From contig CAWKKR010000005.1 in the NCBI GenBank assembly GCA_963850305.1, forward strand, positions 335,641 to 399,640: a DNA stretch of 64,000 nucleotides, read 5' to 3'. The position numbers and the translations under genes were made by a program. The notes beneath the pieces are model-generated. The model worked only from the letters and a program-made list of their open reading frames with translations. It searched no databases and had not been told where the DNA came from. Numbering within the stretch: the stretch's first letter is position 1; every line of letters starts with the position of its first letter. This stretch comes from an uncultured delta proteobacterium (lineage in GTDB: Bacteria > Myxococcota_A > Polyangia > Polyangiales > Polyangiaceae). This document shows, piece after piece, positions 44,346 to 64,000 of this stretch.

Positions 44346-44675
44346 GGTGAAACGCTCGTTTCGAAATCCGCAGCGACCAAACTTCAGGAGGCCGGGGCTG
44401 ACGAGCACCTGGCACGGCGCGAATCTTCGGAGAAGTGCCGCGCGGCCGTCAAGGTACCGCGACGCTGACCGGGCTCCCAGACCGCTCGAGCGAGGCTCCG
44501 GTTGGCGATGCCGGGGTCGGTTTCGGGCGCGCCCGTCCCCGCAACCGGCCCGGCTTCCAATCGAGGCTGCCGCCGGGTCCCCTTTTGTCCCCGGAAGGTG
44601 CATGCTGCGGTGACCGGGCTGCGTGAGGGTGGTTCGAGTCGCGTCGATGCCTGGATGAACGACGAGGTCAGAGTC

Positions 44676-46532
44676 ATGCGGAAAGTTCTCGGTCTTGGTT
44701 TTTTGGTGCTCGGTGCGAGCGTGGCGGCGTGCACCTCGTCGCACGGCGGGGGCACGGGCGATGGCGGAGCCGGAAGTGCAAGTGCGGGCGGTGCGAATCA
44801 GAGCGCGGGCGGCGTCGCGAACGGCAGCTCCGGCGGCTCGAGCGCGGGCGGCGTCGCGAACGGCAGCTCCGGCGGCTCGAGCGCGGGCGGCGTCGCGAAC
44901 GGCAGCTCCGGCGGCTCGAGCGCGGGCGGCGCGGCGGCTGGAAGCTCGGGGGGCACGGCGAATCAAGGCGCCGGCGGCACTCCCGTCACGGGTACCGTCA
45001 TACCGCCGGGCGATCCGGGCACCGCGGACGTGAAGTTCACCATCAACACAACCCAGAACGCGCACCCGATCTCGCCGTACATCTACGGGACCAACGGCGG
45101 CGATCTCACGAAGGAAGCGAAGGGCGAGACGATGACGCGCATGGGCGGCAATCGGCTCACTGCGTACAACTGGGAAACGAACGCCTCGAATGCGGGCTCG
45201 GACTACCAGTACGAGAACGACAATTACATGAGCGCGAGCACGACCGCCGGCGCGCCGATGAAGGCCGCAGTTCAGACGGCGAACGCGTCCGCGGCGAGCA
45301 TCATCATGACCGTTCCGATGGCGGGCTGGGTCTCCGCGGACGAGAGCGGGCCCTGTAACGCGCATCCCCCGGACACGGCGACCATCGAACAGCACTTCTT
45401 TCCGATCATCGCCGCGAAGGGCTCGGCGTTTGTGTATCCGCCCGACACGACCGACGGCAAAGTGTACGCGGACGAGTTCGTGTCGTGGCTCGAGTCGCAG
45501 TTCCCGAACGCGCAGACGGACGCGACGCGGCGCATCTTCTACATGCTCGACAACGAACCCGATCTCTGGTCGAGCACGCACAGCGAGATCCATCCCGACG
45601 CCGTGACGTACGCGGAGCTCGTGCAGAAGAGCACGGCCACCGCGACGGCGATCAAAGCCGTGGCCCCGAACGCGCTCGTCTTCGGCCCGGTGAGCTACGG
45701 ATGGGAGGGTTACACGACCTTGCAGAACGCGCCCGACGCGAACAACCGTGATTTTCTCGAATTTTATCTCGACTCGATGAAGACCGCGGCGACCACCGCC
45801 GGCAAGCGCTTGCTCGACGTGCTCGACGTGCACTGGTATCCGGAAGCGACGGGCGGCGGCACGCGCATCACCGATCAGGGCACCTCCGCCGCCGAGGTGA
45901 CGGCGAGGATCCAGGCTCCGCGCTCCCTCTGGGACCCGACTTACACGGAGACGAGCTGGATCACGCAGGACAGCACCAACGGCCCCATCGAGCTCATCCC
46001 GCTCCTGACGAAAAAGATCGCCGATCACTACCCCGGCACGAAGCTCTCCATCAGCGAATACAACTACGGAGGGAGCACCGACATTTCGGGCGGCATCGCG
46101 GAAGCGGACGTGCTCGGCATCTTCGGTTACCAGGGGCTCTTTGCCGCCGCCATGTGGCCGCTCGCGGCCACGAGTCCGTACATCTTCGGCGGTTTCGCCA
46201 TGTACCGGAATTACGACGGCAATGGCGCGACCTTCGGCGACACGTCCGTGGATTCGACCACGTCGGCGGTCGACACGAGCTCCGTTTATGCGAGCGTGTC
46301 GTCGACCGCGCCGACGAACGTCGTCGTCGTCGCCATCAACAAGAACACGACGGCGATGACCGCCGGCATCACGCTGACCCACGACGTCCACTTGCCCCAC
46401 GCGGACGTCTACACGCTCACGAGTGCCGGCTCGTCCCCCGTCAAGGGCACCGTCATCGACGAGGTCGCGACGAACGCCTATCACTACGCGATGCCCCCGA
46501 TGAGCGTCACCACGCTCGTGTTTCACCCCTGA
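44676..46532 (+). CDS. glycoside hydrolase family 44 (endoglucanase/xyloglucanase) lipoprotein
   Basis: ISPYIYG.N, GGNRLTAYNWETNASNAG, LDNEP, DVHWYPE, ISEYNYG; the linker carries three 39-bp tandem repeats. Confidence 0.93.
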   Translation: MRKVLGLGFLVLGASVAACTSSHGGGTGDGGAGSASAGGANQSAGGVANGSSGGSSAGGVANGSSGGSSAGGVANGSSGGSSAGGAAAGSSGGTANQGAGGTPVTGTVIPPGDPGTADVKFTINTTQNAHPISPYIYGTNGGDLTKEAKGETMTRMGGNRLTAYNWETNASNAGSDYQYENDNYMSASTTAGAPMKAAVQTANASAASIIMTVPMAGWVSADESGPCNAHPPDTATIEQHFFPIIAAKGSAFVYPPDTTDGKVYADEFVSWLESQFPNAQTDATRRIFYMLDNEPDLWSSTHSEIHPDAVTYAELVQKSTATATAIKAVAPNALVFGPVSYGWEGYTTLQNAPDANNRDFLEFYLDSMKTAATTAGKRLLDVLDVHWYPEATGGGTRITDQGTSAAEVTARIQAPRSLWDPTYTETSWITQDSTNGPIELIPLLTKKIADHYPGTKLSISEYNYGGSTDISGGIAEADVLGIFGYQGLFAAAMWPLAATSPYIFGGFAMYRNYDGNGATFGDTSVDSTTSAVDTSSVYASVSSTAPTNVVVVAINKNTTAMTAGITLTHDVHLPHADVYTLTSAGSSPVKGTVIDEVATNAYHYAMPPMSVTTLVFHP

Positions 46533-47534: not shown

Positions 47535-47544
47535 GTGCTACTAG

Positions 47545-48045
47545 CAAAGGGGGGCCTTTGCCCCCCGCGGCTTGCTTCGCAACCGCTCCCCCCGCCGCCT
47601 TCGGCGGGCTCGTGCTCGCAAGGGGGTCTTGACCCCCGCGGCTCGCTCCGCGCCCGCTCCCCCCGCCGCCTTCGGCGGGCTCGTGCTCGCAAGGGGGTCT
47701 TGACCCCCGCGGCTCGCTCCGCGCCCGCTCCCCCCGCCGCCTTCGGCGGGCTCGTGCTCGCAAGGGGGTCTTGACCCCCGCGGCTCGCTCCGCGCCCGCT
47801 CCCCCCGCCGCCTTCGGCGGGCTCGCTTTGCTCGCAAGGGGGGCCTTTGCCCCCCGCGGCTTGCTCCGCGACCGCTCCCCCCGCCGCCTTCGGCGGGCTC
47901 GCTATGCTCGCAAGGGGGGCCTTTGCCCCCCGCGGCTTGCTCCGCAACCGCTCCCCCCGCCGCCTTCGGCGGGCTCGCTTTGCTCGCGTAGTTCCGCAGC
48001 TCTTTGATCCCTCGGGGACGACGCGGCTCGTCGATGCGGAACTAC
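47545..48045. repeat. second array of about 71-bp REP-like units (6 copies, two variants), ending in the 58-bp GTAG element
   Basis: GGGGGTCTTGACCCCC and GGGGGCCTTTGCCCCC variants with CCGCCTTCGGCGG; between convergent genes. Confidence 0.93.
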
Positions 48046-48621
48046 TCAGTGCCGCACGACGCGCTCGATCCGTCTGTCGGGGACGAGCCACACCAGCGCG
48101 ACGAAGACGTAAAGAGCGCACGAGATCACCGGGTGTACGAAGGCTGCCGGAATCGCCACCCCGTAGGCCACCAGGGACACCTTGCCCTTCTTGTCGTCTT
48201 TGACCGCGGCCTTGAGCCGCGATGCCGGCCCCTGGTGGTGGACGATCGCGGCTTGCAGCACGGTGTACGCGACCGCGGACATGAGCAACACGACGCCGTA
48301 CGTGGCGGTCGGGACGGGCGCAAAGTGATTCTGTCCCATCCAGCCGGTGACGAACGGCGTGAGCGACAGCCAGAACAGAAGGTGCAAGTTCGCCCACAAG
48401 ATGGCGCCGTTCACGTGCTCCGTCAGCTGGAGCATGTGATGGTGGTTGTTCCAGTAAATCCCCACGAAAACGAAGCTCAGGACATACGTCAGAAATACCG
48501 GGAGGATCTGCTCGAGCGCCGCGAGATCCGTCCGGTGCGGGACCTGCAGCTCGAGCACCATGATGGTGATGATGATCGCGAGGACGCCATCGCTGAACGC
48601 TTCGAGGCGGGCCGTCTTCAT
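48046..48621 (-). CDS. TMEM175-family potassium channel
   Basis: RLEAFSDGVLAIIITIMVLEL, YVLSF, WNNHH. Confidence 0.93.
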   Translation of the reverse strand: MKTARLEAFSDGVLAIIITIMVLELQVPHRTDLAALEQILPVFLTYVLSFVFVGIYWNNHHHMLQLTEHVNGAILWANLHLLFWLSLTPFVTGWMGQNHFAPVPTATYGVVLLMSAVAYTVLQAAIVHHQGPASRLKAAVKDDKKGKVSLVAYGVAIPAAFVHPVISCALYVFVALVWLVPDRRIERVVRH

Positions 48622-48732
48622 CGGGGTCCCCGCGGAGTTTATCGATTGAGCGAAGCCAGGAGCGGGAAAACCGGGCGCGAGCGACCCGCGGCTCCAGTCG
48701 GATTCGTACACCGGCCAAGGCCCGCGATTTGC

Positions 48733-48777
48733 GGTGTCCGGGGCCGGAATTGAACCGCCGACACGTGGATTTTCAAT
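48733..48777 (-). mobile_element. 3' fragment of tRNA-Phe (att-like site 1)
   Basis: reverse complement is ATTGAAAATCCACGTGTCGGCGGTTCAATTCCGGCCCCGGACACC; no D-arm or 5' half. Confidence 0.85.
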
Positions 48778-49233: not shown

Positions 49234-49421
49234 TTCTCCGAAGCGTCGAGGGGCCGCCCGACACGCGCGACGACGAGGCATGGCTCGTGGAGCTTCGCGC
49301 GAGAGCCGAGCGCGTGCTTCGCGGCGAAGCGAAGGGGCGCCCGTGGCACGAGGTCCGCGACGCGCTCCTCGCTGACCTCCGACGTTGATGCGCGCTGTTC
49401 GTCGAGTCAGAAGCGGAGACC
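49234..49421 (+). repeat. 188-bp direct repeat, copy 1 (3' part of the addiction-module gene)
   Basis: nearly identical to 50120-50307 (one mismatch seen). Confidence 0.92.
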
Positions 49422-50025: not shown

Positions 50026-50274
50026 ATGAGCACCGGACATCAGGCTCGCGCGAGTGCGGACATGCTCGCGGAAGCGCTGAGCCTGCCCGAGGACCAACGC
50101 GTCTGCCTCGCCGCCGACCTTCTCCGAAGCGTCGAGGGGCCGCCCGACACGCCCGACGACGAGGCATGGCTCGTGGAGCTTCGCGCGAGAGCCGAGCGCG
50201 TGCTTCGCGGCGAAGCGAAGGGGCGCCCGTGGCACGAGGTCCGCGACGCGCTCCTCGCTGACCTCCGACGTTGA
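50026..50274 (+). CDS. putative addiction-module antitoxin (TIGR02574-like)
   Basis: ALSLPEDQR..LA..LL.S, AW..EL..R, PW.EVR. Confidence 0.85.
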   Translation: MSTGHQARASADMLAEALSLPEDQRVCLAADLLRSVEGPPDTPDDEAWLVELRARAERVLRGEAKGRPWHEVRDALLADLRR

Positions 50275-50307
50275 TGCGCGCTGTTCGTCGAGTCAGAAGC
50301 GGAGACC
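50120..50307 (+). repeat. 188-bp direct repeat, copy 2
   Basis: matches 49234-49421. Confidence 0.92.
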
Positions 50308-50318
50308 CCCTGAATTTC

Positions 50319-50366
50319 TGGTGTCCGGGGACGGAATTGAACCGCCGACACGTGGATTTTCAATCC
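50319..50366 (-). mobile_element. 3' fragment of tRNA-Phe (att-like site 2, boundary of the integrase island)
   Basis: reverse complement is GGATTGAAAATCCACGTGTCGGCGGTTCAATTCCGTCCCCGGACACCA; about 95 bp from the integrase stop. Confidence 0.88.
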
Positions 50367-50461: not shown

Positions 50462-51664
50462 TCATGCGAGTCGGCGTCCACGGCCCCCCGGGATGAGCCG
50501 AAGAGCCACCTTCCGCTCCGCCGCAGCGTCCTCGAAGCGTTGGAAGAGTTCGTCCCCTTTGGTCGCCCGACCGTAGACTTGGTCGAGCATCCTGGTCGAC
50601 GTGTGTCCCATAGCGACCGCAAGGTCCTCTTGGCGGACACCTTCATCTTTGCACCAATGGGCGAAGGTCCGTCGGAGATTGGTCAAAGTACAGTGCTCGA
50701 TCTTCGCGCGCTTGCAGGCTTCGTTCATCGCGCGCCGAGCGTTCGACCAGGCTGAGAACAACAGGCCGTCCTCACCATCGGCGTGGGTACGCACGAGCTT
50801 TAGCAGCTCGTGCTGCCAATCGAAGAGCAAGGGCACAAGGCGCTCGCGTGTACGTCGCTTCGTTCCGTGGATCGGAATCATCCGCGCTTTGGAGTCGGCG
50901 ACGTCCGTTCTCAGGGCACGCTGGACGGCACGCAGTTCGGCTCCGGTCGCGAGCACGTAAGCGGCGATCGCGGCCCGCGCCTCGTCGAGAAAACCCCCGA
51001 GCAGCGCCTTGGCCTCTTCGTGCGTGAGGTGGTGTTCACCGGGCTCGTAGTTCGTCTCGAAGCCGGGAGGGACAACGACATCTAGATCGCCCGTCCACAG
51101 ACCCTGCCGTTTCGCAAGCCGCAGCGCCGGCCGCAATGTCGTGCGCTCTTTGCTGATCGTGTAGTCGTCCACGTTCCCGCGGCGCCATGTGACGAATCGG
51201 TCCACGAAACCGGCGTCGACGCCCGCAAGCGAGAACGATTGGCCCGCCTCGATTAGCCCCGCACTCTCTTCCTTTGTGAGCTGGCGCGGAGGTCTTCGAT
51301 CTTCGCTCTTCGTCTCGGCTGCCTCGTACGCCGCGAAGAGATACCAGCTCTTCGCCTTCTTTTCGTAGAAGATCACGGTGTCGTCGCTCTTCGGGTTTTT
51401 CGCCCGCTTCGTTTGGGATCGTCGGTCCTCGACGAGTAGATCGATCGCTTGTTTCAGCGTCGCACCCTGCTCTCGACGCTTCTGGGCCGCCGCGGTCGGA
51501 TCGGCTGCTTCTAACTCCCATTGAGTGAGCTGCTTGCGGGCAGCTTCCTTCCTCGTCTGGCGCGTCGATCGTTTCTCTTGCTTATACTTCCCATTGGGGC
51601 CTCGCGTGTTGACCCAGGCGTACCAAACGCCGCCTGGGCGTCGGCGAAACAGGTGCTCGCTCAT
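50462..51664 (-). CDS. tyrosine recombinase/integrase
   Basis: N-terminal arm-binding-like WYA..KRSTR; HGTK, NLRRTFA, MGHTSTRML..VY; adjacent to the att site. Confidence 0.88.
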   Translation of the reverse strand: MSEHLFRRRPGGVWYAWVNTRGPNGKYKQEKRSTRQTRKEAARKQLTQWELEAADPTAAAQKRREQGATLKQAIDLLVEDRRSQTKRAKNPKSDDTVIFYEKKAKSWYLFAAYEAAETKSEDRRPPRQLTKEESAGLIEAGQSFSLAGVDAGFVDRFVTWRRGNVDDYTISKERTTLRPALRLAKRQGLWTGDLDVVVPPGFETNYEPGEHHLTHEEAKALLGGFLDEARAAIAAYVLATGAELRAVQRALRTDVADSKARMIPIHGTKRRTRERLVPLLFDWQHELLKLVRTHADGEDGLLFSAWSNARRAMNEACKRAKIEHCTLTNLRRTFAHWCKDEGVRQEDLAVAMGHTSTRMLDQVYGRATKGDELFQRFEDAAAERKVALRLIPGGRGRRLA

Positions 51665-52290
51665 TGGTCGAACGTCCTTTTCGCGTAACGCTCCCAAACC
51701 TCGACGAGTACGCGGAGGCTCTTGCCTGTCCCGTTCACCCGACCCGATGCCTCGCGGAGATGACGGTATGCGGTCGACTTGGAGCAATCGAGTGCGTCCA
51801 TGACGTCTTTCATGCCCACGTAATGCGAGAGACGCGGTGTTCTCTCTGAGCGCTTCGGCTGCTGTCCACCGTCGGCCTTACGCTCGCGCGATCTCGTTGG
51901 TCGTGCAGTAGGGGCGGTCGGCAACGCATCGGTAACGAACGTCGGCAACTCTCGCGACGCTGCGCCCGTGAACACGTCGTTCGGGTCCTTCGTGCTCTTC
52001 ACGCCTTCGAGCTTCGCCGCGAGCGCCGTGGCTAGGTCATCACGACCAGTCAATATCGCCTCGTGAACTCTCGCCTCCTCCTCGTGCTCGAGTTCGCGAA
52101 TATGCTGGTCGACGAATTCCCCCACGAAATCGATCGCGTCGAAGACAGCGATGACCGTGTCTGCTCCCGCAGCCAGGAACATGCCGCCGTCGCCCTCGTC
52201 GGCGATCGCGGCGTGCGCCGGAAGGGGCGCGAGATCGATCCCCGCCCAATCGGTCGCAGCGGCGGGGTTCTCTGCTAAGTTGTGATCCAT
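51661..52290 (-). CDS. excisionase/AlpA-like HTH protein
   Basis: C-terminal VGMKDVMDALDCSKSTAYRHL; its stop overlaps the integrase start. Confidence 0.6.
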   Translation of the reverse strand: MDHNLAENPAAATDWAGIDLAPLPAHAAIADEGDGGMFLAAGADTVIAVFDAIDFVGEFVDQHIRELEHEEEARVHEAILTGRDDLATALAAKLEGVKSTKDPNDVFTGAASRELPTFVTDALPTAPTARPTRSRERKADGGQQPKRSERTPRLSHYVGMKDVMDALDCSKSTAYRHLREASGRVNGTGKSLRVLVEVWERYAKRTFDQ

Positions 52291-52357: not shown

Positions 52358-52934
52358 CTAGGCGGCAACGGCCCGTGACGCTCCGAGGCGCAAATCGCCG
52401 CCAAGCAGCCGCGCCAGCACGACAACGAGCGCGCCCGCGGCGAAGCCTCCGATGTGATCCCCGAACGAAACGCCCTCAGCGCCCGAGACCCCGAAGGCGT
52501 GCAGGATGTTGCTCGCGACGAGCACCGCGACGAACGCGAGCATCGCCGGCCCGTAGAGCGTCGCGGCGACCGCGAGGACCGCGAATAGAGCGCCACTGCA
52601 CCCGACCAGAGGCACCGTCGAACTCCGGGTCGACGACCACATGCAGCGCCGCCCCGGCGAGCCCCCCGGCAAGGAAGAGCATCGCGAACCGCGTCGAGCC
52701 GATCGCCCGCTCGACAAGCGAGCCGACGAAGAGCAGGACGGCGACGTTGCCGCCGACGTGGAGAACGCCGCTCGGGTCGTGAACGAACAAGCTCGAAAGC
52801 GCCGTGCCGAGGCTCGGGTGCGCCCGGATCATGAGGCCGCTGCTTCCGGTGCCGCAGATGTACGTGCCGTCCTTCGGGGCTTGCTCACCGCATCTCCGAC
52901 ACGCTTCTGCGAAGGAAGCTGACTGCGATCGCAA
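52358..52934 (-). pseudogene. rhomboid intramembrane serine protease, frameshifted
   Basis: SLFVH...HVGGN...ER in one frame; VGCSG and DHIGG in another; shift near 52622. Confidence 0.8.
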
Positions 52935-53469: not shown

Positions 53470-53862
53470 TCACGGTTTGGTCGCGCGTCGCTTACGTTGA
53501 CGCTGTTTTCGCGGCGGCTCGGCGACGACAAGGACGCGCTCGCGGTGCGCTGGCTTCGCTTCCGTATCTCCGGGGGGTCGGCCGAGCCGCATGACGTAGC
53601 TTGACGGACGCGGCGGGACGAGTAGCGCTTCGAGGTCGATGTCCAGAGCGTTGGCCACGCGAGCGAGCGAGTGAACGGTTAAGTTGGCGCCGTACTCGAT
53701 CTGCTGCACCCACTGCATCGTCGCCCGGAGCTTGCTGGCGAGGGCTTGCTGGGTGAGGCCCCGCTCGCGGCGAATCTCCGCGACGCGGCGCCCGATGTCG
53801 CGGACAAGGCGGTCGGGGGCGTAACGAGCCACGGGACCGGACGGTTCCAGCCCGCAACCCAA
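53470..53862 (-). CDS. XRE-family HTH transcriptional regulator
   Basis: IGRRVAEIRRERGLTQQALA..QQIE.G.NLTV.SL.RVANAL. Confidence 0.88.
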   Translation of the reverse strand: MGCGLEPSGPVARYAPDRLVRDIGRRVAEIRRERGLTQQALASKLRATMQWVQQIEYGANLTVHSLARVANALDIDLEALLVPPRPSSYVMRLGRPPGDTEAKPAHRERVLVVAEPPRKQRQRKRRATKP

Positions 53863-53952: not shown

Positions 53953-55443
53953 ATGACCCGGGCGGACCACGACGACAACACGACCGAGCTGCTCGACCCC
54001 CTCGTCGCGCGGGCCCGCCAGCGCGTCGGCAGCGTGCTCAAAGAGAAGTGGCGCCTCGACGTCCTTCTCGGTGTCGGCGGCATGGCGGCCGTCTATGCAG
54101 CCACGCATCGCAACGGCAGTCGCGTGGCGATCAAGATCCTTCACCCGGAGCTGAGCGTCAGCGCCGACGTGCGCACGCGCTTCATGCGCGAGGGCTACGC
54201 GGCCAACGCCGTCGGTCACGACGGAGTCGTCCGCGTCTCCGACGACGATGTCTCCGACGACGGGTCCGCGTTCCTTGTGATGGAACTCCTCGATGGCGAA
54301 ACGCTCGAGGACCGCCGCCAACGTAACGGAGGCCGCCTCAGCGAAGACGAAGTGCTATCCGTCGCCGACCAACTCCTCGATGTGCTCGTGGCCGCGCACG
54401 CCAAGGGGATCATCCACCGAGACCTCAAGCCCGAGAACGTCTTCATTGCCCGCGATGGCCGCGTGAGGGTTCTCGATTTCGGCATCGCGCGCCTCCGGGA
54501 GATGTCCGGCGCGAGCCACGCGACGCGCACCGGCTTCTCGATGGGCACGCCCGCATACATGGCGCCCGAGCAAGCGCGTGCGCTATGGAACGAAGTCGAT
54601 GGGAGAACCGATCTCTGGTCGCTCGGTGCGACGCTGTTCTCGCTTCTTTCAGGCAGAGAAGTTCATTCCGGGCGCACCGCCAACGAGGTCCTCATCATGG
54701 CAGCGACGCAGCCCGCGCCGCCGCTCGCGTCGGTCTTGCCGGAAGTGAGCCCCGCAGTTGCGCGGGTCGTGGACAAGGCCGTGGCATTCGAGCGCGATCA
54801 TAGGTGGCGGGACGCCGCGACGATGCAGGAGGCCGTGCGGTCCGCGTACCACGATCGGCACGGCACGCCGTTCCCCACGGCTTCGCAGCTCACGGTTCCC
54901 CCGACGGTCGTGAATCGGACGTTGGCTTCGGCGGCGGTGAGCGCCGTCTCACCCGGGGCACCGACAACGAACCGCGCGGTCGCGACTTCTCATATCGGTG
55001 CGTCGCTCGCGTCTCTTGCTGCGCGCTTCCCGAGCCTGAGCCCAATCGCCCTTGGCGTCGGTGGCGCTGTGATCGTCGCCGCGATCATCGTTGGCGTGGT
55101 TCTCGTGTCAAGCGGAAGCAAAGCCCCGGCGCCACCGGCGGCGGCGACAACGACGGTTGCCGCTAGACCCGAGCCATCGGCCCCGAGAATCGCCTCGAGC
55201 TCGCCCGCGACGGCAGCGGCTCCCGAACCGAATGCCGCGCCGACAATCGCAGTGACCGATCTGCCGACGGAGACCGCTCCGGCGGTCACAATCGTGAAGC
55301 CGGCACCAAAGCCTCGAGTCCTGGCCCCGACGCCTGCGGCTCCGACAGCGACAACGGCGAAGACGGCAAAACCCGACTGTAGCCCGCCGTACGTGCTCGA
55401 CCCCGTGACTGGGACGAAAAAATGGAAGCCAGCATGTTTCTAG
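53953..55443 (+). CDS. membrane serine/threonine protein kinase
   Basis: [36 protein letters not shown] helix, Pro-rich linker, C-terminal C.PPY...K.WKPAC. Confidence 0.95.
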
Positions 55444-55445
55444 CG

Positions 55446-56304
55446 GTGCGAACCCGAACGGCGCTTCTCGCCGCGGCAGCGGTGGCCGTGGCCAGATCCG
55501 CGGTCGCGACCGAACCAGCGCCGACGAAGGCGGAATGCATCGCTGCGAGCGAGTCTGGCCAGGACCTTCGCCACGCGGGGAAGCTCAACGATGCCCGCAC
55601 GCAGTTCGCGGTCTGCGTGGCGGCGAGCTGCCCGGGGCCGATCCGCGACGACTGCGCGCAGCGCCTGAACGAGATCGGAAAGGCGACGCCCTCGGTCGTG
55701 TTCGAGGTGAAGGACGCGACCGGCAACGACGTGCCGGGCGTGGCGATCACGATGGACGGGCAATCCGTTGCGGGCGTCGGCACGGCTATCGAGCTCGACC
55801 CTGGCGAGCACACGTTCAGCTTCGAAGTAGCGGGGCTCCCGAAGATCGAGAAGCGACTCGTCATCGCCGAGGGAGTGAAGCAACGGCGCGAGGTCGTCAT
55901 CATGGATCCCGCGCTGAAGCGGCGCAGACCGCGAACACGGAATCACCAACGACGGGCGAGGAGCCCGCGCGATCAGCGGGTCTGCCGACTCTCGCTTGGG
56001 TGGCGTTCGGGGTCGGTGGTGCGGGGTTGCTGCTCGGCATGACTGCCGGTCTCGTCGCCGGAGCGAAGCACTCATCGCTTTCGAACGTCTGCAACGACAC
56101 CGCCGGCACCTGCCCACCGACGTACAGCGACGACCTCGACTCCTTCCACACGTGGCGAACGGTTTCGACCGTCGGCTACGTCGTCGGTGTGCTCGGTGTC
56201 GCGGGCGGTACAGTCCTGTGGCTGACAGCGCCGAAGGCGTCGAGCACGATGACGGCGCGTGTGTGGCTCGGGTCGGGTCGGCGGGGATTGCGGGGAGGTT
56301 CTGA
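55446..56304 (+). pseudogene. PEGA-like exported protein, frameshifted
   Basis: signal peptide, Cys motif, IELDPGEH; the frame changes near 55905 and 56272 to give hydrophobic segments and the GIAGRF end. Confidence 0.7.
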
Positions 56305-57024
56305 ATGCGCCTGTGGTTGCCGATCGTGCTCGCTTTGCCTTTGGTGGTGACGGCGTGTCCGGCGCTGCTTAGCGACTGGAAGGTCAGCGGGAGAGGCGCG
56401 GGCGATGCCTCCGTTGACGCCACCGGTCCCGGGGCCGGCGGCTCATCGGGATCGAATGGCGGCTCGTCGTCGGGCGGATCATCCAGCTCGGGCGGCGTAG
56501 ATGGGGGTTTGTTGCACAGCGAGAATGGTCTTGACGGAGAGGCGAATGGTGCTGGCGGTTCTATCAATGCGTGCGCGACGGGTACAGTTCGTTGCTTGGA
56601 GGCGCAACCGCAGACGTGCGTGAGCGGCGTTTGGCTCGCGAACGGGGCGGCGTGCTCGGGATCAACGCCCGTGTGTTTGAATTCGAATGGAGGCTGCGTG
56701 ACGTGCAATCCAGGCAGTCGGTCATGTGCAAGTCAGACCCAGCCCGAGACGTGCGATGCATCCGGTTCGTGGGCGGCGGGCACCGATTGTCCGACGGCGA
56801 CTCCGTTGTGCTCCGAGGGGGCGTGCGCGGCCATTTGCTGTAAGTCTACGACCGACACGACAGTTCTGTCGTGTGATCTCGCCAACTCCAGCACCCAATG
56901 GGACTGTCTAAGCGGTAGTGCATGGGGTCTGTGCGGAGAACCCGGTCACTGCACTAGCACTGGCCTCACGTGTGGCGTGGTGGGACAGCTGACGGCTACC
57001 GGAACTGTCGAAGCCTGTCCGTGA
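56305..57024 (+). CDS. Cys-rich lipoprotein
   Basis: lipobox VTAC-PALLSDWK, Gly/Ser linker, Cys repeats. Confidence 0.78.
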   Translation: MRLWLPIVLALPLVVTACPALLSDWKVSGRGAGDASVDATGPGAGGSSGSNGGSSSGGSSSSGGVDGGLLHSENGLDGEANGAGGSINACATGTVRCLEAQPQTCVSGVWLANGAACSGSTPVCLNSNGGCVTCNPGSRSCASQTQPETCDASGSWAAGTDCPTATPLCSEGACAAICCKSTTDTTVLSCDLANSSTQWDCLSGSAWGLCGEPGHCTSTGLTCGVVGQLTATGTVEACP

Positions 57025-57048
57025 TTCGCGAAAGAAGACTGAAAACCA

Positions 57049-57324
57049 ATGCGCTACGCCGACCTCAAAAAAGAACGCGACGAAGCCATCGCCCGCGCCA
57101 TCGAAGCCGAGCGACTCTCGATGAAGAGCGAGTTTGACAAGCTCGCGGCCGAGCACGAGCAAGAGCGCTTCAGGTCGCTTGCGTTGGTCGAATCCGGAAC
57201 ACGCGAGCGCGCGCTCGACGTCGCGGGCGGCGCAGTCCTCTGGCTGACGACGCCGACGGCACGCGACGCGACAGCGACGGGCAGGCTCGGACTCGCGTCC
57301 GCGGGGCGCGCGGGGAGGTTCTGA
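57049..57324 (+). pseudogene. chimeric ORF ending in a remnant of a PEGA-gene paralog
   Basis: VAGGAVLWLT...AGRF* is paralogous to the 3' end of the 55446-56304 gene. Confidence 0.55.
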
Positions 57325-59129
57325 TGCGCGCCTCGCTCGTGATCGCGCTCGCACTCCCGCTCGCGCTCACCGGATGCCCGGCGTTGCTCTCTGATTGGAA
57401 GATCAGCGGCGGCGGCGCGGGCGATGCCTCGGTTGACACCACCACGGGTGGGGTGTCCGGCAACGGTGGAGTCGGCGGCGCGACGAGCACCGGTGGCGCG
57501 ACGAGCACCGGTGGCGCGACCGCTACGGGGGGAGCCGGCGGAACCGCGGGAAGCGGAGGCGCGGTCAGCACCGGTGGAACGGATGGCGGCCCGGGAGACG
57601 GCACGGCGGTTGGGAATCTTGGAGACGCGTGTCCAGAGAACGCCGCCACCGCGTGCAATGGCCAGGCGCAGCAGCAGCAGCTCGTCTGCGTGAACCACGT
57701 CTGGGGCGGCAACGGGAAGTGCACCGGCAACAACAACTGCGACAGCGCGCCGGGAGCGACTGCCGGGACTTGTCAGCCCGTCGTGGCCGAGTGCATCGGT
57801 AAGCAACCGGGAAACGTGCTGTGCCAGGGCATGAACCGCGTCGCGTGCGGCCCGGACCTCGTGACGACAACTCCGGTGGACACATGCGCTGCGGACACTC
57901 AGACGTGCGTGAACGGTGTCTGCGTGACGTGCGGCGCCGGGACGGCGAACTGCGACGGGAACGCGACGGACTGCGAGACGAACCTGAACTCGACGGCGAC
58001 GTGCGGGACGACGTGCGTGAACAAGGTGGCTTGCTCGACGGCGAACGGGACGGCTTCGTGTAGCACGGGAGCGTGCGTGGTCGCGAGCTGCAACAGTGGG
58101 TACGTCGACTGCGACGGACTAACCGGCAACGGGTGCGAGACGAACCTGAACGACCCCGCGACGTGCGGGACGACGTGCTTGACCAACGTGGCCTGCGCGG
58201 CCCCCACTCCCGCGTGCAGCGCCGGCACCTGCGTCGCGCCTCCGAGCTGCCAGGGCCTGCCCGCCACGTGCGGCCCTTCCGGGAATGAGTCGTGCTGCAC
58301 GAGCCCGCTGGTGACGGGTGGGACGTTCTACCGGAGCTACGACGGCGTGACATCCGGCTACACGAGCGAGGCGTACCCGGCGACGGTGAACAATTTCCTG
58401 CTCGACAAGTACGAGATCACGGTGGGGCGGTTCCGGAAGTTCGTGGCGGCGTATTCGCAGAGCATGATCGCGGCGGGTGCCGGCAAGAACCCGAACAACG
58501 CGAGCGACCCGGGCTGGGACACGGCGTGGAACGCAAGCCTGCCCGCTGACGCGGCGGCGCTTCAGACCGCCATCGCGTGCAACGCGACGTACCAGACGTG
58601 GACCCCGAGGGGGGAACGACAACCGGCCGATGAACTGCATCGACTGGTACGAGGCGAACGCCTTCTGCATCTGGGACGGCGGACGTCTGCCGACGGAAGC
58701 AGAGTGGAACTACGCGGCGGCAGGAGGGACCGACCAGCGGGTGTACCCGTGGGGCGCGACGGCACCGGGAGCGAACGCGGCTCTGGCCGTGTACAGCTGC
58801 TACTACAACGGAGCTGGGAGCTGCTCGGGAGTCACAACGTCGCTCCCGTGGGCTCCGTGAGCGCCGGCAACGGCAAGTATGGGCAGGCGGACCTTGCCGG
58901 CAACGTCTCGGAGTGGACGCTGGACTGGTATGCGAGCCCCTACTCGCAGACGTCGTGCACAAACTGTGCCGATACAACAGCAGCCGCGTACCGGGTCATC
59001 CGCGGCGGGGGCTTCGACGACATTGCGTCGTACCTGCTCTCGTCGTTCCGCAGCTACAACGGCCCGACGGGCCACAGCTTCAACTTCGGTTCCCGGTGCG
59101 CCAGGACACCCGTAGCAGATCGGGCATGA
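57324..59129 (+). CDS. DGR target: Cys-rich lipoprotein with a C-terminal FGE-sulfatase/C-type lectin-fold domain (two compensating frameshifts)
   Basis: lipobox LTGC; LDKYEITVGRF; PMNCIDWYEA.AFC.WDGGRLPTEAEW..AA in the alternative frame (about 58610-58835); DLAGNVSEW, RVIRGG, GSRCAR. Confidence 0.88.
   Translation: MRASLVIALALPLALTGCPALLSDWKISGGGAGDASVDTTTGGVSGNGGVGGATSTGGATSTGGATATGGAGGTAGSGGAVSTGGTDGGPGDGTAVGNLGDACPENAATACNGQAQQQQLVCVNHVWGGNGKCTGNNNCDSAPGATAGTCQPVVAECIGKQPGNVLCQGMNRVACGPDLVTTTPVDTCAADTQTCVNGVCVTCGAGTANCDGNATDCETNLNSTATCGTTCVNKVACSTANGTASCSTGACVVASCNSGYVDCDGLTGNGCETNLNDPATCGTTCLTNVACAAPTPACSAGTCVAPPSCQGLPATCGPSGNESCCTSPLVTGGTFYRSYDGVTSGYTSEAYPATVNNFLLDKYEITVGRFRKFVAAYSQSMIAAGAGKNPNNASDPGWDTAWNASLPADAAALQTAIACNATYQTWTPRGERQPADELHRLVRGERLLHLGRRTSADGSRVELRGGRRDRPAGVPVGRDGTGSERGSGRVQLLLQRSWELLGSHNVAPVGSVSAGNGKYGQADLAGNVSEWTLDWYASPYSQTSCTNCADTTAAAYRVIRGGGFDDIASYLLSSFRSYNGPTGHSFNFGSRCARTPVADRA
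58978..59106 (+). repeat. DGR variable repeat (VR)
   Basis: 129-bp ungapped match to 59760-59888 with 20 mismatches, all at codon positions 1-2. Confidence 0.9.
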
Positions 59130-59204
59130 ATGTTGCTTGTTCGCGCGGATCGTCACCAACCCCTGATCCCTTGAATCCTGAACCCCTGAAAATTCCGAGG
59201 AAGC

Positions 59205-59717
59205 GTGAGCCACGAGCCGGATGCGAAGCAAGGGTCGGATGACGTCGCCGCAGGCAAGGAGCCGGGCGGGTCTTCGTCCGGGAGCCGAGCGAGCGGAGCG
59301 AGCGAGGCTCGCCCTGCGCGGGGCCGTGGCGGCTCCGCGCCCGCCGTTGCGGCGCTCCGGATGGAAAGCGTTTCGCTCTGGGTCGTGCAGCGGGTGGAGG
59401 CTTTCCCGCGCAGTCACCGGTTCACCATCGGCGACCGCTGGATAGAGACCTGCCTCGACGCGCAGACGAGCCTCGTCGAGGCGAGCTACGTCCGCGACAA
59501 GCGCGGGCTCCTGCTCGGCGCTTCGCGGGCGCTCGTGCGCGGCCGCGTGCTCGCTCGGATGGCCGCCGCGCTCCGCGCCATCTCGCTCGATCAGGAGGCG
59601 CACTTCGCTCGCGAGTCGGGCGAGATTGGCCGCATGATAGGCGGCTGGCTGCGCGCCCTCCGGGGAAGCGATGCGCGCGCGGCATCTAAGAACGTCGGGG
59701 TCGCCGGTACTCCATGA
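59205..59717 (+). CDS. avd: DGR accessory protein Avd (four-helix bundle)
   Basis: FPRSHRFTIGDR and EIGRMIGGW motifs; lies between the VR and the TR-like copy; start could be 59361. Confidence 0.9.
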   Translation: MSHEPDAKQGSDDVAAGKEPGGSSSGSRASGASEARPARGRGGSAPAVAALRMESVSLWVVQRVEAFPRSHRFTIGDRWIETCLDAQTSLVEASYVRDKRGLLLGASRALVRGRVLARMAAALRAISLDQEAHFARESGEIGRMIGGWLRALRGSDARAASKNVGVAGTP

Positions 59718-59734
59718 TGATCTCATGGAGTACC
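59706..59734. other. perfect 12-bp hairpin at the avd stop, 5' of the TR
   Basis: GGTACTCCATGA-TGATC-TCATGGAGTACC. Confidence 0.85.
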
Positions 59735-59759
59735 TTCGGTCCCGCGGGGGCGGGGCGGG

Positions 59760-59888
59760 CAGCAGCCACGAACCGGGTCATCCGCGGCGGGAGCTTCAGC
59801 AACCATGCGTCGTACCTGCTCTCGTCGAACCGCATCTACAGCGGCCCGACGAGCCGCAGCAGCGGCAACGGTTCCCGGTGCGCCAGGA
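59760..59888 (+). repeat. DGR template-repeat-like copy (TR)
   Basis: intergenic, directly after avd; carries A at 12 of the 20 mismatches with the VR. Confidence 0.85.
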
Positions 59889-60138
59889 GTGCGCCGTGAG
59901 CGCGTCCAGGTGGTCCGGAGCGAGCGATGACGCCGCAGAACCTGGGGGGCGCGAATCCCCTCCGACCAGGCCGAGCCGGGTCACCGCGGCTCCGTGCGTC
60001 CGAGCGCAGGAAGCGCCGTAGAGCCTGCCGTTCCCTCGCGGGTGCTGTCTCGGCCTCCTCGCGGCCCTGGCCTCCGAGGTTTCCGTTGACCATGGCGCTC
60101 GGCGGGCGTGTACTTCCGGATCAACGCAGGGGTTTTCC

Positions 60139-61140
60139 GTGCAGATGATTGTCCGGCGCATCGTCGTGCCAGGAGTTCTCCTGGCCGCTCTCTCGTTCAC
60201 CGGCAACGTTGCCGCCCAGGCCGCAACGAGCAGCGCGGAGGCCGAGGCCCTCTTCGATGCGGGCCGTGCTGCCCTCGATCGGAAAGATTATGCCACCGCC
60301 TGCGAGCGGTTCGCCGGGTCGAACAAGCTGGAGCCCGCGGTCGGGACCGTGTTGAACCTCGCCTACTGCAATGAAATGCAGGGCAAGCTCGCCACGGCGT
60401 GGGCGAACTATCGTGAGGCGCTCTACAAGCTGCCCCCGGGAGACTCGCGGGCCGCCACGGCCCAGACCCGGCTCGATGCGCTCCAGCCGAGGCTCGCCTA
60501 CCTGACACTGCGGGCAGTCGGGCTGACGAAGGAGTCCACCGTGCTGCTCGATGGCGTGACGATCCCGGTCGAGGCCCTCGGTGTCCCGGTGCCGATCGAT
60601 CCGGGTCCGCACGAGGTGATCGTTCGCTCCCCAGGTCGGCAGACGGAGACCTTCGACACGACCGTGAAGGACGCCGAGAAGGCCGAGCTTGCCGTATCAC
60701 CCGGGGACTCGAACCAAGCCGCATCCTCGGCACCGATTCCGCAAGCTCCTGCTGCGACGCTCCCAAAGCCACTGGAGCAGCCAACGCCGCCGCCCGTCGA
60801 ACACGATCAAGGCAGCTCGTCCACCCTTGGCTACGTCCTCGGAGGCGTCGGCCTCGCTTCTCTGGCCACGAGCTTGGTCACAGGGCTCATGGCCCTCGGC
60901 AAGAACTCGAGCGTGAATGACCACTGCCAGGCTGCCCCCTCTGGCCCAGCACGGCTCTGCGATTCGGAGGGATTCTCCGCGGCTGCCTCGGGCAAGACGC
61001 TGGCCCTCGTGTCCGACGTCACGCTGGGCGTCGGAGTCGTGGGACTCGGGCTCGGGACGTACCTCGTTCTCACCGCGGGGGGCAGCACGAGCCGTGAAGG
61101 GCCGGCGCAGGGCTCCGTGAGCTTCACGGGGACGTTCTGA
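60139..61140 (+). CDS. TPR plus PEGA-like exported protein
   Basis: AEALFDAGR..AC.RF..S..LEP..GT.LNLA.C; PIDPGPH; hydrophobic segments, terminal GTF. Confidence 0.85.
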   Translation: MQMIVRRIVVPGVLLAALSFTGNVAAQAATSSAEAEALFDAGRAALDRKDYATACERFAGSNKLEPAVGTVLNLAYCNEMQGKLATAWANYREALYKLPPGDSRAATAQTRLDALQPRLAYLTLRAVGLTKESTVLLDGVTIPVEALGVPVPIDPGPHEVIVRSPGRQTETFDTTVKDAEKAELAVSPGDSNQAASSAPIPQAPAATLPKPLEQPTPPPVEHDQGSSSTLGYVLGGVGLASLATSLVTGLMALGKNSSVNDHCQAAPSGPARLCDSEGFSAAASGKTLALVSDVTLGVGVVGLGLGTYLVLTAGGSTSREGPAQGSVSFTGTF

Positions 61141-62584
61141 TGTTCAAGCTCGCGGTAACGACGTGGATCGCCGCCGTCGCGTTCACGACGGCCTGCACGG
61201 CGTTCGTGGACTTCAGCAACCTGGAAGCGAGGGGCTCGGACGCTGGAACCGGGGGAACACGTGCTGCGGATGCCGGCTCGGGCGGCGGAGTGTCGAGCGG
61301 GAGCGGCGGGTCGGGGGGGTTGGGCGGAGGCACCGGCGCGGGCGGCTCGTCGGGATTGGGTGGCGTGATTGGGGCCGGCGGGACGATCGGTTCGGGAGGC
61401 GCCGAGGGCAGCTCCGGCTCTGGCTCTGGCGGAACGAGTGGCGCGACGGCAACCGGTGGCGCGGCGGGGTGCGCGACTCACACCCTGCCTCCATCGGTCA
61501 ACGTCGATGCATCGCAGTGGACGGCGGAGTTCCTCACGGCGCCCACGTGGAATTGCAACGCGAGCGGGACGACGACGATCGACTCCAATGCGGGCACGAT
61601 AACGAGCACGAGCTGCGCCCTCGGCACGGTCGATTTACGAACGGCGTTACTCAACTCGACGCGAGCGGGCCGAGCGTCATGGTCGTTCGTCTACAAGGAC
61701 TCACCGTGACGAACGGCCACGTGATCCAGCTGACGGGCGACAAGCCAATCGTCTTCCTCGTAGCGGGTGATGTCGTCGTCGACACGGGCGGCAGGATCGA
61801 CGCGAGCGCGAATGGCACCGCAGCGGGGCCCGGAGGTAGCGACTCGACACGATGCACCGGCTCGACCGGCACGCCCTCTTCAGAGACGGGCATTGGCGGC
61901 GGCGGTGGAGGTTTCGGTACCGCGGGGGGGTACGGCGCCGATCTCACTGGCAGGAGCGGCAGCGCGGGAGGAGCCGTTAGCTCGATAACCAACCTTCAGC
62001 CTCTCCGTGGTGGATGTTCCGGAGGGACCGGGGGAGGGTCCCAAAACTTCACGGGCGGAGGCGGCGGTGGGGCGTTCGAGATCAGCGCGTCTGGAACGAT
62101 CACCATCGGACACTCGGGCGACACCTCGACAACGAGCGGCACGCTGAGTGCCGCTGGCGGTTACTCCCTGGGCGCGCCCAAATATACGCCCAATAGTGGC
62201 AGTGCCGGCGCGGGGAGTGGCGGTGGGATTCTCATCGTGTCACCCGCAACCGCCACGTTCGGCACCAACGGTGCGGCTCGCGCCCACGGCGGGGGGTCCG
62301 GGTCCGGATATGGCACGGACGCGGACCCAGGCGGCAACAACGGGACGAACGGGCATACCGCGGACAACACGGCGGCGGCGGGGGGTGCAGCGCCGAACAG
62401 CTACGGGGCCCCCGGCGTCAAGGGCGGGCTCTGCGCCGGCAACAACTGCTCGATCGCTTCCGCGCCGGGATCAAACGGCGCTGGCGCGGGTGATTCCGGC
62501 ATCGATCACGACGGGTCCGGCGGTGGCGGCGGTGGCGGGCGCGTCGTGGTGATGACCAGCGCGGTCACGGTCGCGTGCGACTGA
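61140..62584 (+). pseudogene. Gly-rich lipoprotein, frameshifted
   Basis: lipobox TTAC in the 61140 frame; continues in the 61163 frame after about 61636 (GGGGGGFGT.GG, LRGGCSGG, GGGGGGRV). Confidence 0.72.
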
Positions 62585-63250: not shown

Positions 63251-63448
63251 TTTTAAATCTGCTACTCCGGTCAGCGTGACCAGAGTCGAGACATCGAGCG
63301 CCCGGAGGCGTCCGGGGATGGGCGTGAAGCCGCGCCACCGTGTCGGAGGCCAGGAGAAGCAAAGCCGTCCCCTTCGTCGACCCGCCGCTCCCCCGCCGTC
63401 CACGACGGCCCCGGGCCGTCAAGGACGGGGATTTTCGGTACATTTTGA

Positions 63449-64000
63449 GAAGAGCGGCACGTCACCGGCTGGGACGATCCCCGCATGCCGACCCTCGCCG
63501 GACTCCGCCGCCGCGGCTTTACGGCTGAAGCCATCCGCTCGTTCTGTGACCGCATCGGTGTCGCCCGGAAGGACGGGGTCGTGGACGTGGCGCTCCTCGA
63601 GTTCGAGCTCCGCGAGGACCTCAACAGGCGTTCGCCACGAGCGATGGCCGTGCTCAGGCCGCTCCGGCTGGTCATCGAAAACTTTCCCGAGGGAGAGGTC
63701 GAGTGGTTCGAGGCGTCGAATCATCCGGAGTTTCCAGATCGAGGTTCGAGGAAGATCCCGTTTTCCAGGGTCGTCTATGTCGAGGAAGACGATTTTCCGA
63801 GAGGCGCCGCCGAAGGGGTGGTTTCGCCTCGCCCCGGGTGCCGAGGTCAGGCTGCGGTCCGCGTGCCTCGTGCGGTGCCGCGAAGTCGTGAAGGATGAAG
63901 CTGGCCACGTCGTCGAGCTCCGGTGCACCTGGGACCCCGACTCGCGCGGAGGCATGCCGAAGGATGGACGCAAGGTAAAGGGGACGATTCACTGGGTCTC
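63449..64000 (+). pseudogene. glnS: 5'-truncated glutaminyl-tRNA synthetase (runs off the window)
   Basis: [49 protein letters not shown]; in-frame TGA at 63446, no HIGH half, frameshift near 63796. Confidence 0.85.

Follow-up and report, generated by a model that had tools for sequence, protein, structure and literature searches.

The 64,000-nt window analysed here (positions 335641-399640 of contig C5 in the source assembly G000, at a contig end) comes from an uncultured member of the Polyangiaceae; the sources of its protein homologues label them Polyangiaceae or Myxococcota. It carries the relic of a diversity-generating retroelement (DGR), whose reverse transcriptase (RT), spacer and true template have been lost from the assembly (6.26 Mb, 11 contigs, 94.8% complete). 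The relic lies among genes for a membrane Ser/Thr kinase, for TPR/PEGA partner proteins (P; the two copies in the window are P1 and P2) and for lipoproteins, one of which ends in a lectin (CLec) domain. We think it likely that the DGR is dead and sits in an operon of a generic kind (kinase, adaptor and lipoprotein) that is uncharacterised; past diversification, on an integrative island, would have left the locus in its present frozen state. An initial annotation had proposed a possible hypervariable receptor signalling system here; as a working receptor the locus itself is not supported, with the DGR lacking RT, spacer and template and with genes that are frame-broken as assembled. The features on which the argument rests are listed below; C2, C6 and similar labels are other contigs of G000, and Gnnn and Lnnn are genomes and loci of relatives.

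53953..55443, + strand: membrane Ser/Thr kinase, 496 aa (Pkinase E 4.7e-39; motifs; hydropathy)
55434..56304, + strand: partner P1, Cys-type (intact paralogues on C9 and C6; AlphaFold2 model; fold searches)
56305..57024, + strand: lipoprotein 1, made up of a signal and mature head that it shares with the others, a Gly/Ser linker and a Cys-rich domain (sequence)
57213..57324, + strand: duplicated tail of the partner gene, inside the open reading frame (ORF) 57049-57324 (73% identity to the P1 junction)
57324..59129, + strand: lipoprotein 2, with head, Gly linker, Cys-rich repeats and a TvpA-like FGE/CLec domain (Pfam FGE-sulfatase)
58978..59106, + strand: fossil variable repeat, in the 3'-terminal part of the CLec gene
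59205..59717, + strand: avd accessory gene, intact (Pfam bAvd above cut-off)
59760..59899, + strand: repeat at the template position, which reads as a variable repeat (adenine-poor; followed by neither spacer nor RT)
60139..61140, + strand: partner P2, of the classical TPR type and intact (C6 carries a copy with 97% identity)
61140..62584, + strand: lipoprotein 3, with a glycine-rich C-terminal domain (sequence; six paralogous domains in the genome)

The avd gene is present as annotated, scoring 41.7 bits with Pfam bAvd (cut-off 40) and 65 bits with the NCBIfam Avd model, under its cut-off of 80. The repeats, however, do not form a clean pair of template and variable repeat. The 129-nt pair (58978-59106 and 59760-59888, 84% identical) differs at 12 of 23 template adenines, but also at 8 of 98 other positions. 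Six RT-linked template/target pairs from relatives differ at 10-22 adenines and at no other position, and a seventh at 9 adenines and 1 non-adenine. In the repeat that occupies the template position, AAC/AAT occurs 4 times, compared to 9-14 times in the seven RT-linked templates, and 21 of the 35 adenines of the closest relative's template are retained. This repeat has a target-type AGG near its end and, in alignment, the same final codons and stop as the target genes on C6 and C9.

Neither the spacer nor the RT was found. A spacer profile that scored 19-92 bits in all 11 relatives when each was left out in turn gave -5 bits in the window, and a genome-wide search of G000 yielded a best E of 0.08, with no credible match. 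Similarly, a Pfam RVT_1 search of the whole G000 assembly, at its 94.8% completeness, returned no match, and 17 RT sequences of relatives used as queries against G000 gave best E values of 0.22 (tblastn) and 0.18 (profile). The RT of this DGR clade is absent both from G000 and from all six same-genus genomes, in which the only matches were 25-34% identical.

Past adenine mutagenesis at the locus is nonetheless clear, and to this extent the annotated DGR-diversified CLec stands, as a record of what happened rather than as a device with RT, spacer and true template now. Among the two window repeats and the repeat on C9, 29 positions vary, and 26 of these are A in the templates of two relatives, in which 37 of 121 sites are A overall. 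We rejected random drift of the template, since the changes fall on ancestral adenines. We also considered the CLec genes at the C2 and C5 contig edges as hidden DGR targets and set them aside: neither copy departs from the other along the repeat, and they have no BLAST match to the window repeats.

A protein query found avd relatives in 20 of 400 genomes of the order, the Pfam bAvd search being less sensitive (0 of 40 relatives found). Avd searches gave no match in a genome-contig collection, two loci in metagenome contigs, and distant relatives only (23-45% identity) in viral contigs. Relatives with a close Avd share the order target, avd, template and spacer, with the RT on the opposite strand. 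Together they make up a myxobacterial DGR clade (L041, L052, L042, L054, L259 and others), in which the RT is convergent on the template and the spacer, of ∼200 nt, is conserved.

Variants and other relics occur in this clade. G218 has a two-target layout (L036), and locus L257 of G102 has an internal deletion that keeps the target, an avd stub, the spacer and an RT stub. In G410, a complete genome, target and avd are kept, the template is eroded and the clade RT is missing; the G549 relic differs at 7 adenines and 14 other positions and is not a clean pair. In genus g85 (L160, L164, L166, L037), CLec lipoproteins are arrayed on either side of or near a kinase and its partner; two of these genomes have avd and template relics, and the repeat sequences differ between species.

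The kinase itself was identified correctly in the initial annotation. Every catalytic motif checked is present and, based on hydropathy, a cytoplasmic kinase domain is followed by one hydrophobic helix from residue 367, a Pro/Ala linker and a C-terminal tail. This tail has 21 residues, two cysteines and the sequence Cys-Pro-Pro-Tyr, and its C, P, K and C are invariant in 25 aligned kinases. The single helix and the cysteine pair point to a periplasmic C-terminus.

The naming of PEGA genes did not hold at the level of family, as neither P1 nor P2 scores with Pfam PEGA. The label comes from a predicted transthyretin/PEGA-like sandwich and from PEGA matches in homologues; for P2, ESM Atlas neighbours carry TPR and PEGA families. 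In the AlphaFold2 model of the C9 partner copy (mean pLDDT 80), three TPR-like helices are followed by the sandwich, then by a helical hairpin that is rich in glycine and has a pair of cysteines, and last by a terminal beta-hairpin. In most aligned partners the final residue of this beta-hairpin is F or W. The predicted sandwich has a fold match with Z of about 10 (root-mean-square deviation (rmsd) 2.0, 75 aligned). The C-terminal domain modelled alone reached a pLDDT of 71, and nothing beyond helical hairpins of a generic kind matched it (best Z 8.9). Searched by sequence with the partner profile, the PDB yielded no E better than 0.27. Four partners (P0165, P0172, P0187 and P0188) have at least two tandem helical hairpins, yet always one terminal beta-hairpin.

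Three junctions between PEGA genes and lipoproteins had been described. Their positions and terminal GxF residues are as reported, with stop and start next to each other at 56304/56305 and sharing bases at 57324 and 61140, but the middle ORF is a duplicated partner tail and not a PEGA gene. A 235-nt junction comprising the P tail and the lipoprotein start was duplicated (57213-57443 is 73% identical to 56191-56424), and in the ORF before 57324 the match to the partner tail is limited to the last ∼37 codons. Similar partner-tail remnants are found on C6 and C7.

The three lipoproteins do differ in their C-termini, as had been noted. Lipoprotein 1 matched no Pfam family. Lipoprotein 2 has a signal peptide with a lipobox cysteine, read from the sequence, and a C-terminal FGE-sulfatase/CLec domain; its intact C9 paralogue matches TvpA (2y3c, E 9.5e-15). 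The glycine-rich domain of lipoprotein 3 (61676-62581) falls in unnamed Myxococcota clusters and has six paralogues in G000, and no named family matched it.

This module is generic rather than special to the locus, and it is mostly free of DGRs. Near copies of the kinase-P-lipoprotein-CLec series are found on C9 (93% identical over 2.5 kb) and C6 (85%), both intact and without avd, and a fourth close paralogous locus, on C7, is without CLec. G000 has 24 P genes (25 matches minus one remnant), of which, by eye, 12 lie directly after a kinase and 11 directly before a lipoprotein. Relatives of P were found in 53 of 60 genomes of the family and in 67 of 120 of the phylum, and amount to 18,422 clusters at E ≤1e-10.

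The kinase tail varies with the type of partner. Among 80 P proteins compared (a remnant, a duplicate and the window copy, which is broken, were removed from 83), the kinase tail motif is upstream of 29 of 32 Cys-type partners versus none of 48 with another N-terminal domain, and several non-Cys-type partners follow kinases with other endings. The two-cysteine tail ends the upstream kinase in 24 of 29 relative loci. At the level of sequence, then, kinase and TPR/PEGA partner are shown to be a conserved, co-varying pair. TPR domains bind peptides, and the covariation of the tail with the TPR-like domain therefore suggests that the one binds the other. A complex model of the mature partner (alignment residues 26-289) with the kinase tail (alignment residues 14-45) scored 0.22, 0.37 and 0.23 against a mark of 0.32, without control folds, and we use it neither for nor against binding.

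We surveyed the slot behind the partner in the context of 20 of the top-scoring CLec loci and of the CLec genes in six genomes carrying DGR genes of the clade; a P was counted if it lay on the same strand and no more than 2.7 kb upstream, and edge genes were dropped (1 and 5, respectively). A partner lies upstream of 7 of 25 CLec genes among the top homologues and of 5 of 16 in the DGR-bearing genomes, in total 12 of 41, compared to about 0.5% expected from position alone. A kinase is also present in 9 of these 12 loci, in one of them in scrambled order, and two same-genus genomes keep kinase, P and CLec without Avd or RT. A head motif of the lipoproteins is found in 9 of the 12 P-linked CLec genes versus 6 of the 29 others. 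CLec lipoproteins are one recurring cargo of this slot among many, and through it the lectin may be coupled to the kinase.

The linkage of DGR targets with kinase and PEGA genes that the initial annotation anticipated in relatives does recur, but in few intact elements. Most RT contigs of relatives end before the target. Of the seven close-clade intact DGRs with a readable adjacent target (L036, cut 115 nt upstream; L038; L039; L040; L052, via candidate contigs; L282; and L041), only one, in G102, has it behind P.

In G102, which belongs to another family, a P-CLec gene leaves contig C308 inside its repeat, with 6 adenine and no other differences in 39 nt. Contig C391 starts with a repeat tail (5 adenine and no other differences in 46 nt) and continues with avd, template and RT. 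If the two contigs join, with 37 nt unseen between them, G102 probably has an intact DGR with its target in the slot behind the partner. A PIN-type pair separates P-CLec from the kinase at this locus (L270), which is encoded on the opposite strand, and no kinase lies directly upstream of P-CLec. The slot genes of G220, G306 and G102 differ from their own templates at 22 adenines and 7 other positions, 18 and 11, and 20 and 10, respectively, as old or lapsed DGR targets would.

The nearest characterised case for the kinase-partner pair is RtkS of Serratia, which binds the periplasmic domain of PpkA; both RtkS and TagR of Pseudomonas are described as exported partners that control PpkA via its periplasmic C-terminus (PMC6082577). 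The arrangement here would be alike in having a membrane Ser/Thr kinase with an exported partner at a periplasmic C-terminus. Moreover, the predicted partner sandwich matches a 76-residue chain of the RtkS-PpkA crystal 9k1u, which may be either protein (Foldseek E 3e-3, Z 7.8, rmsd 2.7, 71 aligned). This match is middling and of a kind common to many sandwiches, and 9k1u has no sequence match to the partner. Unlike in PpkA, the periplasmic part here would consist of a linker and a tail of 21 residues, and a genome holds many paralogous pairs.

On the DGR side, TvpA of Treponema denticola and LdtA of Legionella are similar in being lipoproteins whose C-terminal CLec domain carries the variable repeat, and in being accompanied by avd and by several target paralogues, and the Legionella DGR also sits on an integrative element (PMC5758913). 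The window differs in that RT, spacer and true template are missing and the targets lie in kinase/TPR-PEGA operons; its intact relatives differ in having the RT on the opposite strand. DGR-diversified CLec domains have been reported fused to Ser/Thr kinases in cyanobacteria (PMC7517822) and tied to kinases in conflict systems (PMC7159879). These systems, and the clade 5 'antigen sensors' of multicellular bacteria, share with our locus a tie between CLec and kinase and dispersed CLec paralogues (PMC7517822, PMC10907252, PMC7159879). Direct kinase-CLec fusions are also found in the Avd clade of the locus, at L038, L040, L045 and L049. In contrast to the cyanobacterial fusions and the cytoplasmic conflict systems, the CLec here is a separate exported lipoprotein, which would need an adaptor across the envelope. 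In the open-access literature, judged mostly from listings and outside supplements, we found no description of the kinase-TPR/PEGA-lipoprotein module, of its trans-envelope arrangement or of a myxobacterial DGR; the tables of DGR surveys could list such elements.

Our preferred account is that of a dead DGR in a generic operon. The myxobacterial envelope operon encodes a membrane Ser/Thr kinase, a TPR/PEGA partner, probably exported, and at least one lipoprotein, the lipoproteins having a shared head and swappable end domains. The TPR-like domain of the partner would grip the periplasmic tail of the kinase and control the kinase, much as RtkS and TagR do for PpkA. More tentatively, the C-terminal hairpin of the partner might hold the lipoprotein head, such that ligand binding by the lipoprotein could reach the kinase. 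In this account, a DGR of the clade once mutagenised the CLec lipoprotein in the slot and its paralogues on C9 and C6, and is now dead. In what we take to be the simplest history, recombination of the template with a second variable repeat then removed spacer and RT and left a variable-repeat-like sequence at the template site.

Several points weigh against this account. A template that had targeted itself and later suffered a deletion would resemble the outcome of recombination, and, with the assembly 94.8% complete and the window at a contig end, an intact template and RT could sit in a gap. The counts for covariation and for the slot include related genomes and paralogues and are not independent, the Cys-type partners were found by similarity to the query, and the head motif was defined after looking at the sequences. 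The compartment of the partner was judged from hydropathy (1.75-1.83 for the hairpin helices) and the terminal aromatic residue alone. Against a tie of the DGR to the slot in particular, most P genes precede other cargo or none, 29 of the 41 CLec genes have no P upstream, and in six of the seven readable DGRs the target is a kinase-CLec fusion or a stand-alone lipoprotein.

The frame breaks, too, may be sequencing errors rather than decay. Six breaks in three genes of the locus, near 55905 and 56274 in P1, near 58603, 58835 and 59109 in the CLec gene and near 61636 in lipoprotein 3, amount to ∼0.8 per kb, compared to a background of 2 in 69.8 kb of kinase domains. The two copies of a duplicated contig end (C2:1-3252 and C5:6-3259, 99.4% identical), which carries a CLec gene stopping at the contig edge, differ by 7 indels in 3.2 kb. 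Because another contig end is this error-prone, decay and sequencing error are inseparable at the locus.

The partner could instead be an outer-membrane device for display or anchoring, whose terminal beta-hairpins oligomerise and hold or export lipoproteins, with the DGR diversifying an adhesin (as for LdtA and TvpA) and the kinase only monitoring the partner. The F or W at the end of most of these hairpins would fit such a device, as would lipoproteins with a short conserved head on a long Gly/Ser linker, and the characterised cellular targets of DGRs are surface lipoproteins (PMC10907252, PMC5758913). Many partner-lipoprotein pairs also have no kinase upstream, as for 12 of the 24 partners in G000 and for L270 and L257 in G102. 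However, the strict covariation of the kinase tail with the N-terminal domain of the partner indicates a specific link to the kinase, and a lipoprotein directly follows the partner in only about half of cases (34 of 80, by pattern match). We regard a display device as unlikely.

We consider it quite improbable that the genes are incidental neighbours, brought together by a duplicated junction acting as a recombination hot-spot on mobile islands, with the CLec target functionally unlinked to the kinase pair. Such junctions are indeed duplicated, integrase-like genes lie beside three of the four close paralogous loci, and both the CLec genes without an upstream partner and the six DGRs aimed elsewhere would fit such a reading. 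Nevertheless, more than one family and several genera show the same order of partner and CLec, the distance from stop to start codon is a few bases at most where the two do not overlap, and within one CLec family the head motif switches with linkage to the partner.

Least probable, and in our judgement very hard to sustain, is an active DGR that diversifies lectin signalling via PEGA/TPR to the kinase, with RT and template in an assembly gap and the frame breaks being errors: avd is intact, the assembly falls short of completeness and has noisy contig ends, variable-repeat-like ends are present in two paralogous operons that are intact, and DGRs can act on remote targets (PMC5758913; in G220, five repeats match one template), but the close relatives examined have template, spacer and RT directly after avd, a position that is assembled here and empty, the spacer is absent throughout G000 and the clade RT from the six same-genus genomes, and the C6 repeat has a 3-nt insertion and many non-adenine changes.

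A dead DGR in a generic operon leaves room for the receptor-signalling idea in a weaker, lineage-wide form, for which the kinase-P covariation, the CLec genes behind P and the probable slot target in G102 speak, with the coupling of lectin to kinase still conjectural. It is possible, though we would bet against it, that across the Polyangia TPR/PEGA adaptors plug interchangeable surface lipoproteins into cognate kinases by two codes, tail to TPR and head to hairpin, and that DGRs periodically rewrite the lectin to give a three-part, somatically diversified receptor-kinase that senses prey, kin or phage. Under such a two-code reading, G102 would be the live adaptor-lectin case and the window the frozen one.

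Apart from this proposal, the locus points to a very large, unnamed myxobacterial protein family (the 18,422 clusters) whose members form specific pairs with membrane kinases, and hence to a likely input route for the many Ser/Thr kinases of myxobacteria. If DGR-diversified lectins feed this route, they would form a split, trans-envelope version of the cyanobacterial kinase-lectin fusions and, if true, a testable model of anticipatory recognition in predatory, multicellular bacteria. The death of a DGR can also leave pre-diversified lectin families behind: the CLec family is found in 122 of 250 genomes of the family, versus 15 of 382 for the clade RT.

The locus is probably cargo of an integrative island, because an integrase and two tRNA-Phe 3' fragments lie upstream:

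48727-48777: tRNA-Phe fragment, second copy
50311..50366, - strand: tRNA-Phe 3' fragment, att-like (93% identical over 58 nt to the tRNA-Phe on C6)
50462..51787, - strand: tyrosine integrase (Pfam Phage_integrase E 3.8e-7)
53470..53862, - strand: XRE-type helix-turn-helix protein, divergent from the kinase (Pfam HTH_31 E 1.8e-7)

Integrase-like ORFs, read by eye, also flank the paralogous loci on C9 and C7, and the island may continue to contig C6. Between the two tRNA-Phe fragments, among ORFs that by eye resemble toxin-antitoxin genes, is a 188-bp direct repeat (49234-49421 and 50120-50307, 99.5%). A rhomboid protease gene in two frames (52358-52934) has a 98% identical copy at the end of C8, and its relatives adjoin the islands on C9 and C7.

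A tandem tract of ∼70-bp, REP-like repeats (47540-48050) has very many copies on most contigs, and a second dispersed repeat lies at about 63340-63450. A frame-broken fragment (63485-64000) by eye resembles glutaminyl-tRNA synthetase and has a 90% match on C7. The lipoprotein encoded at 44502-46532 has 676 aa and, besides a Gly/Ser linker, a domain resembling a glycoside hydrolase by eye.

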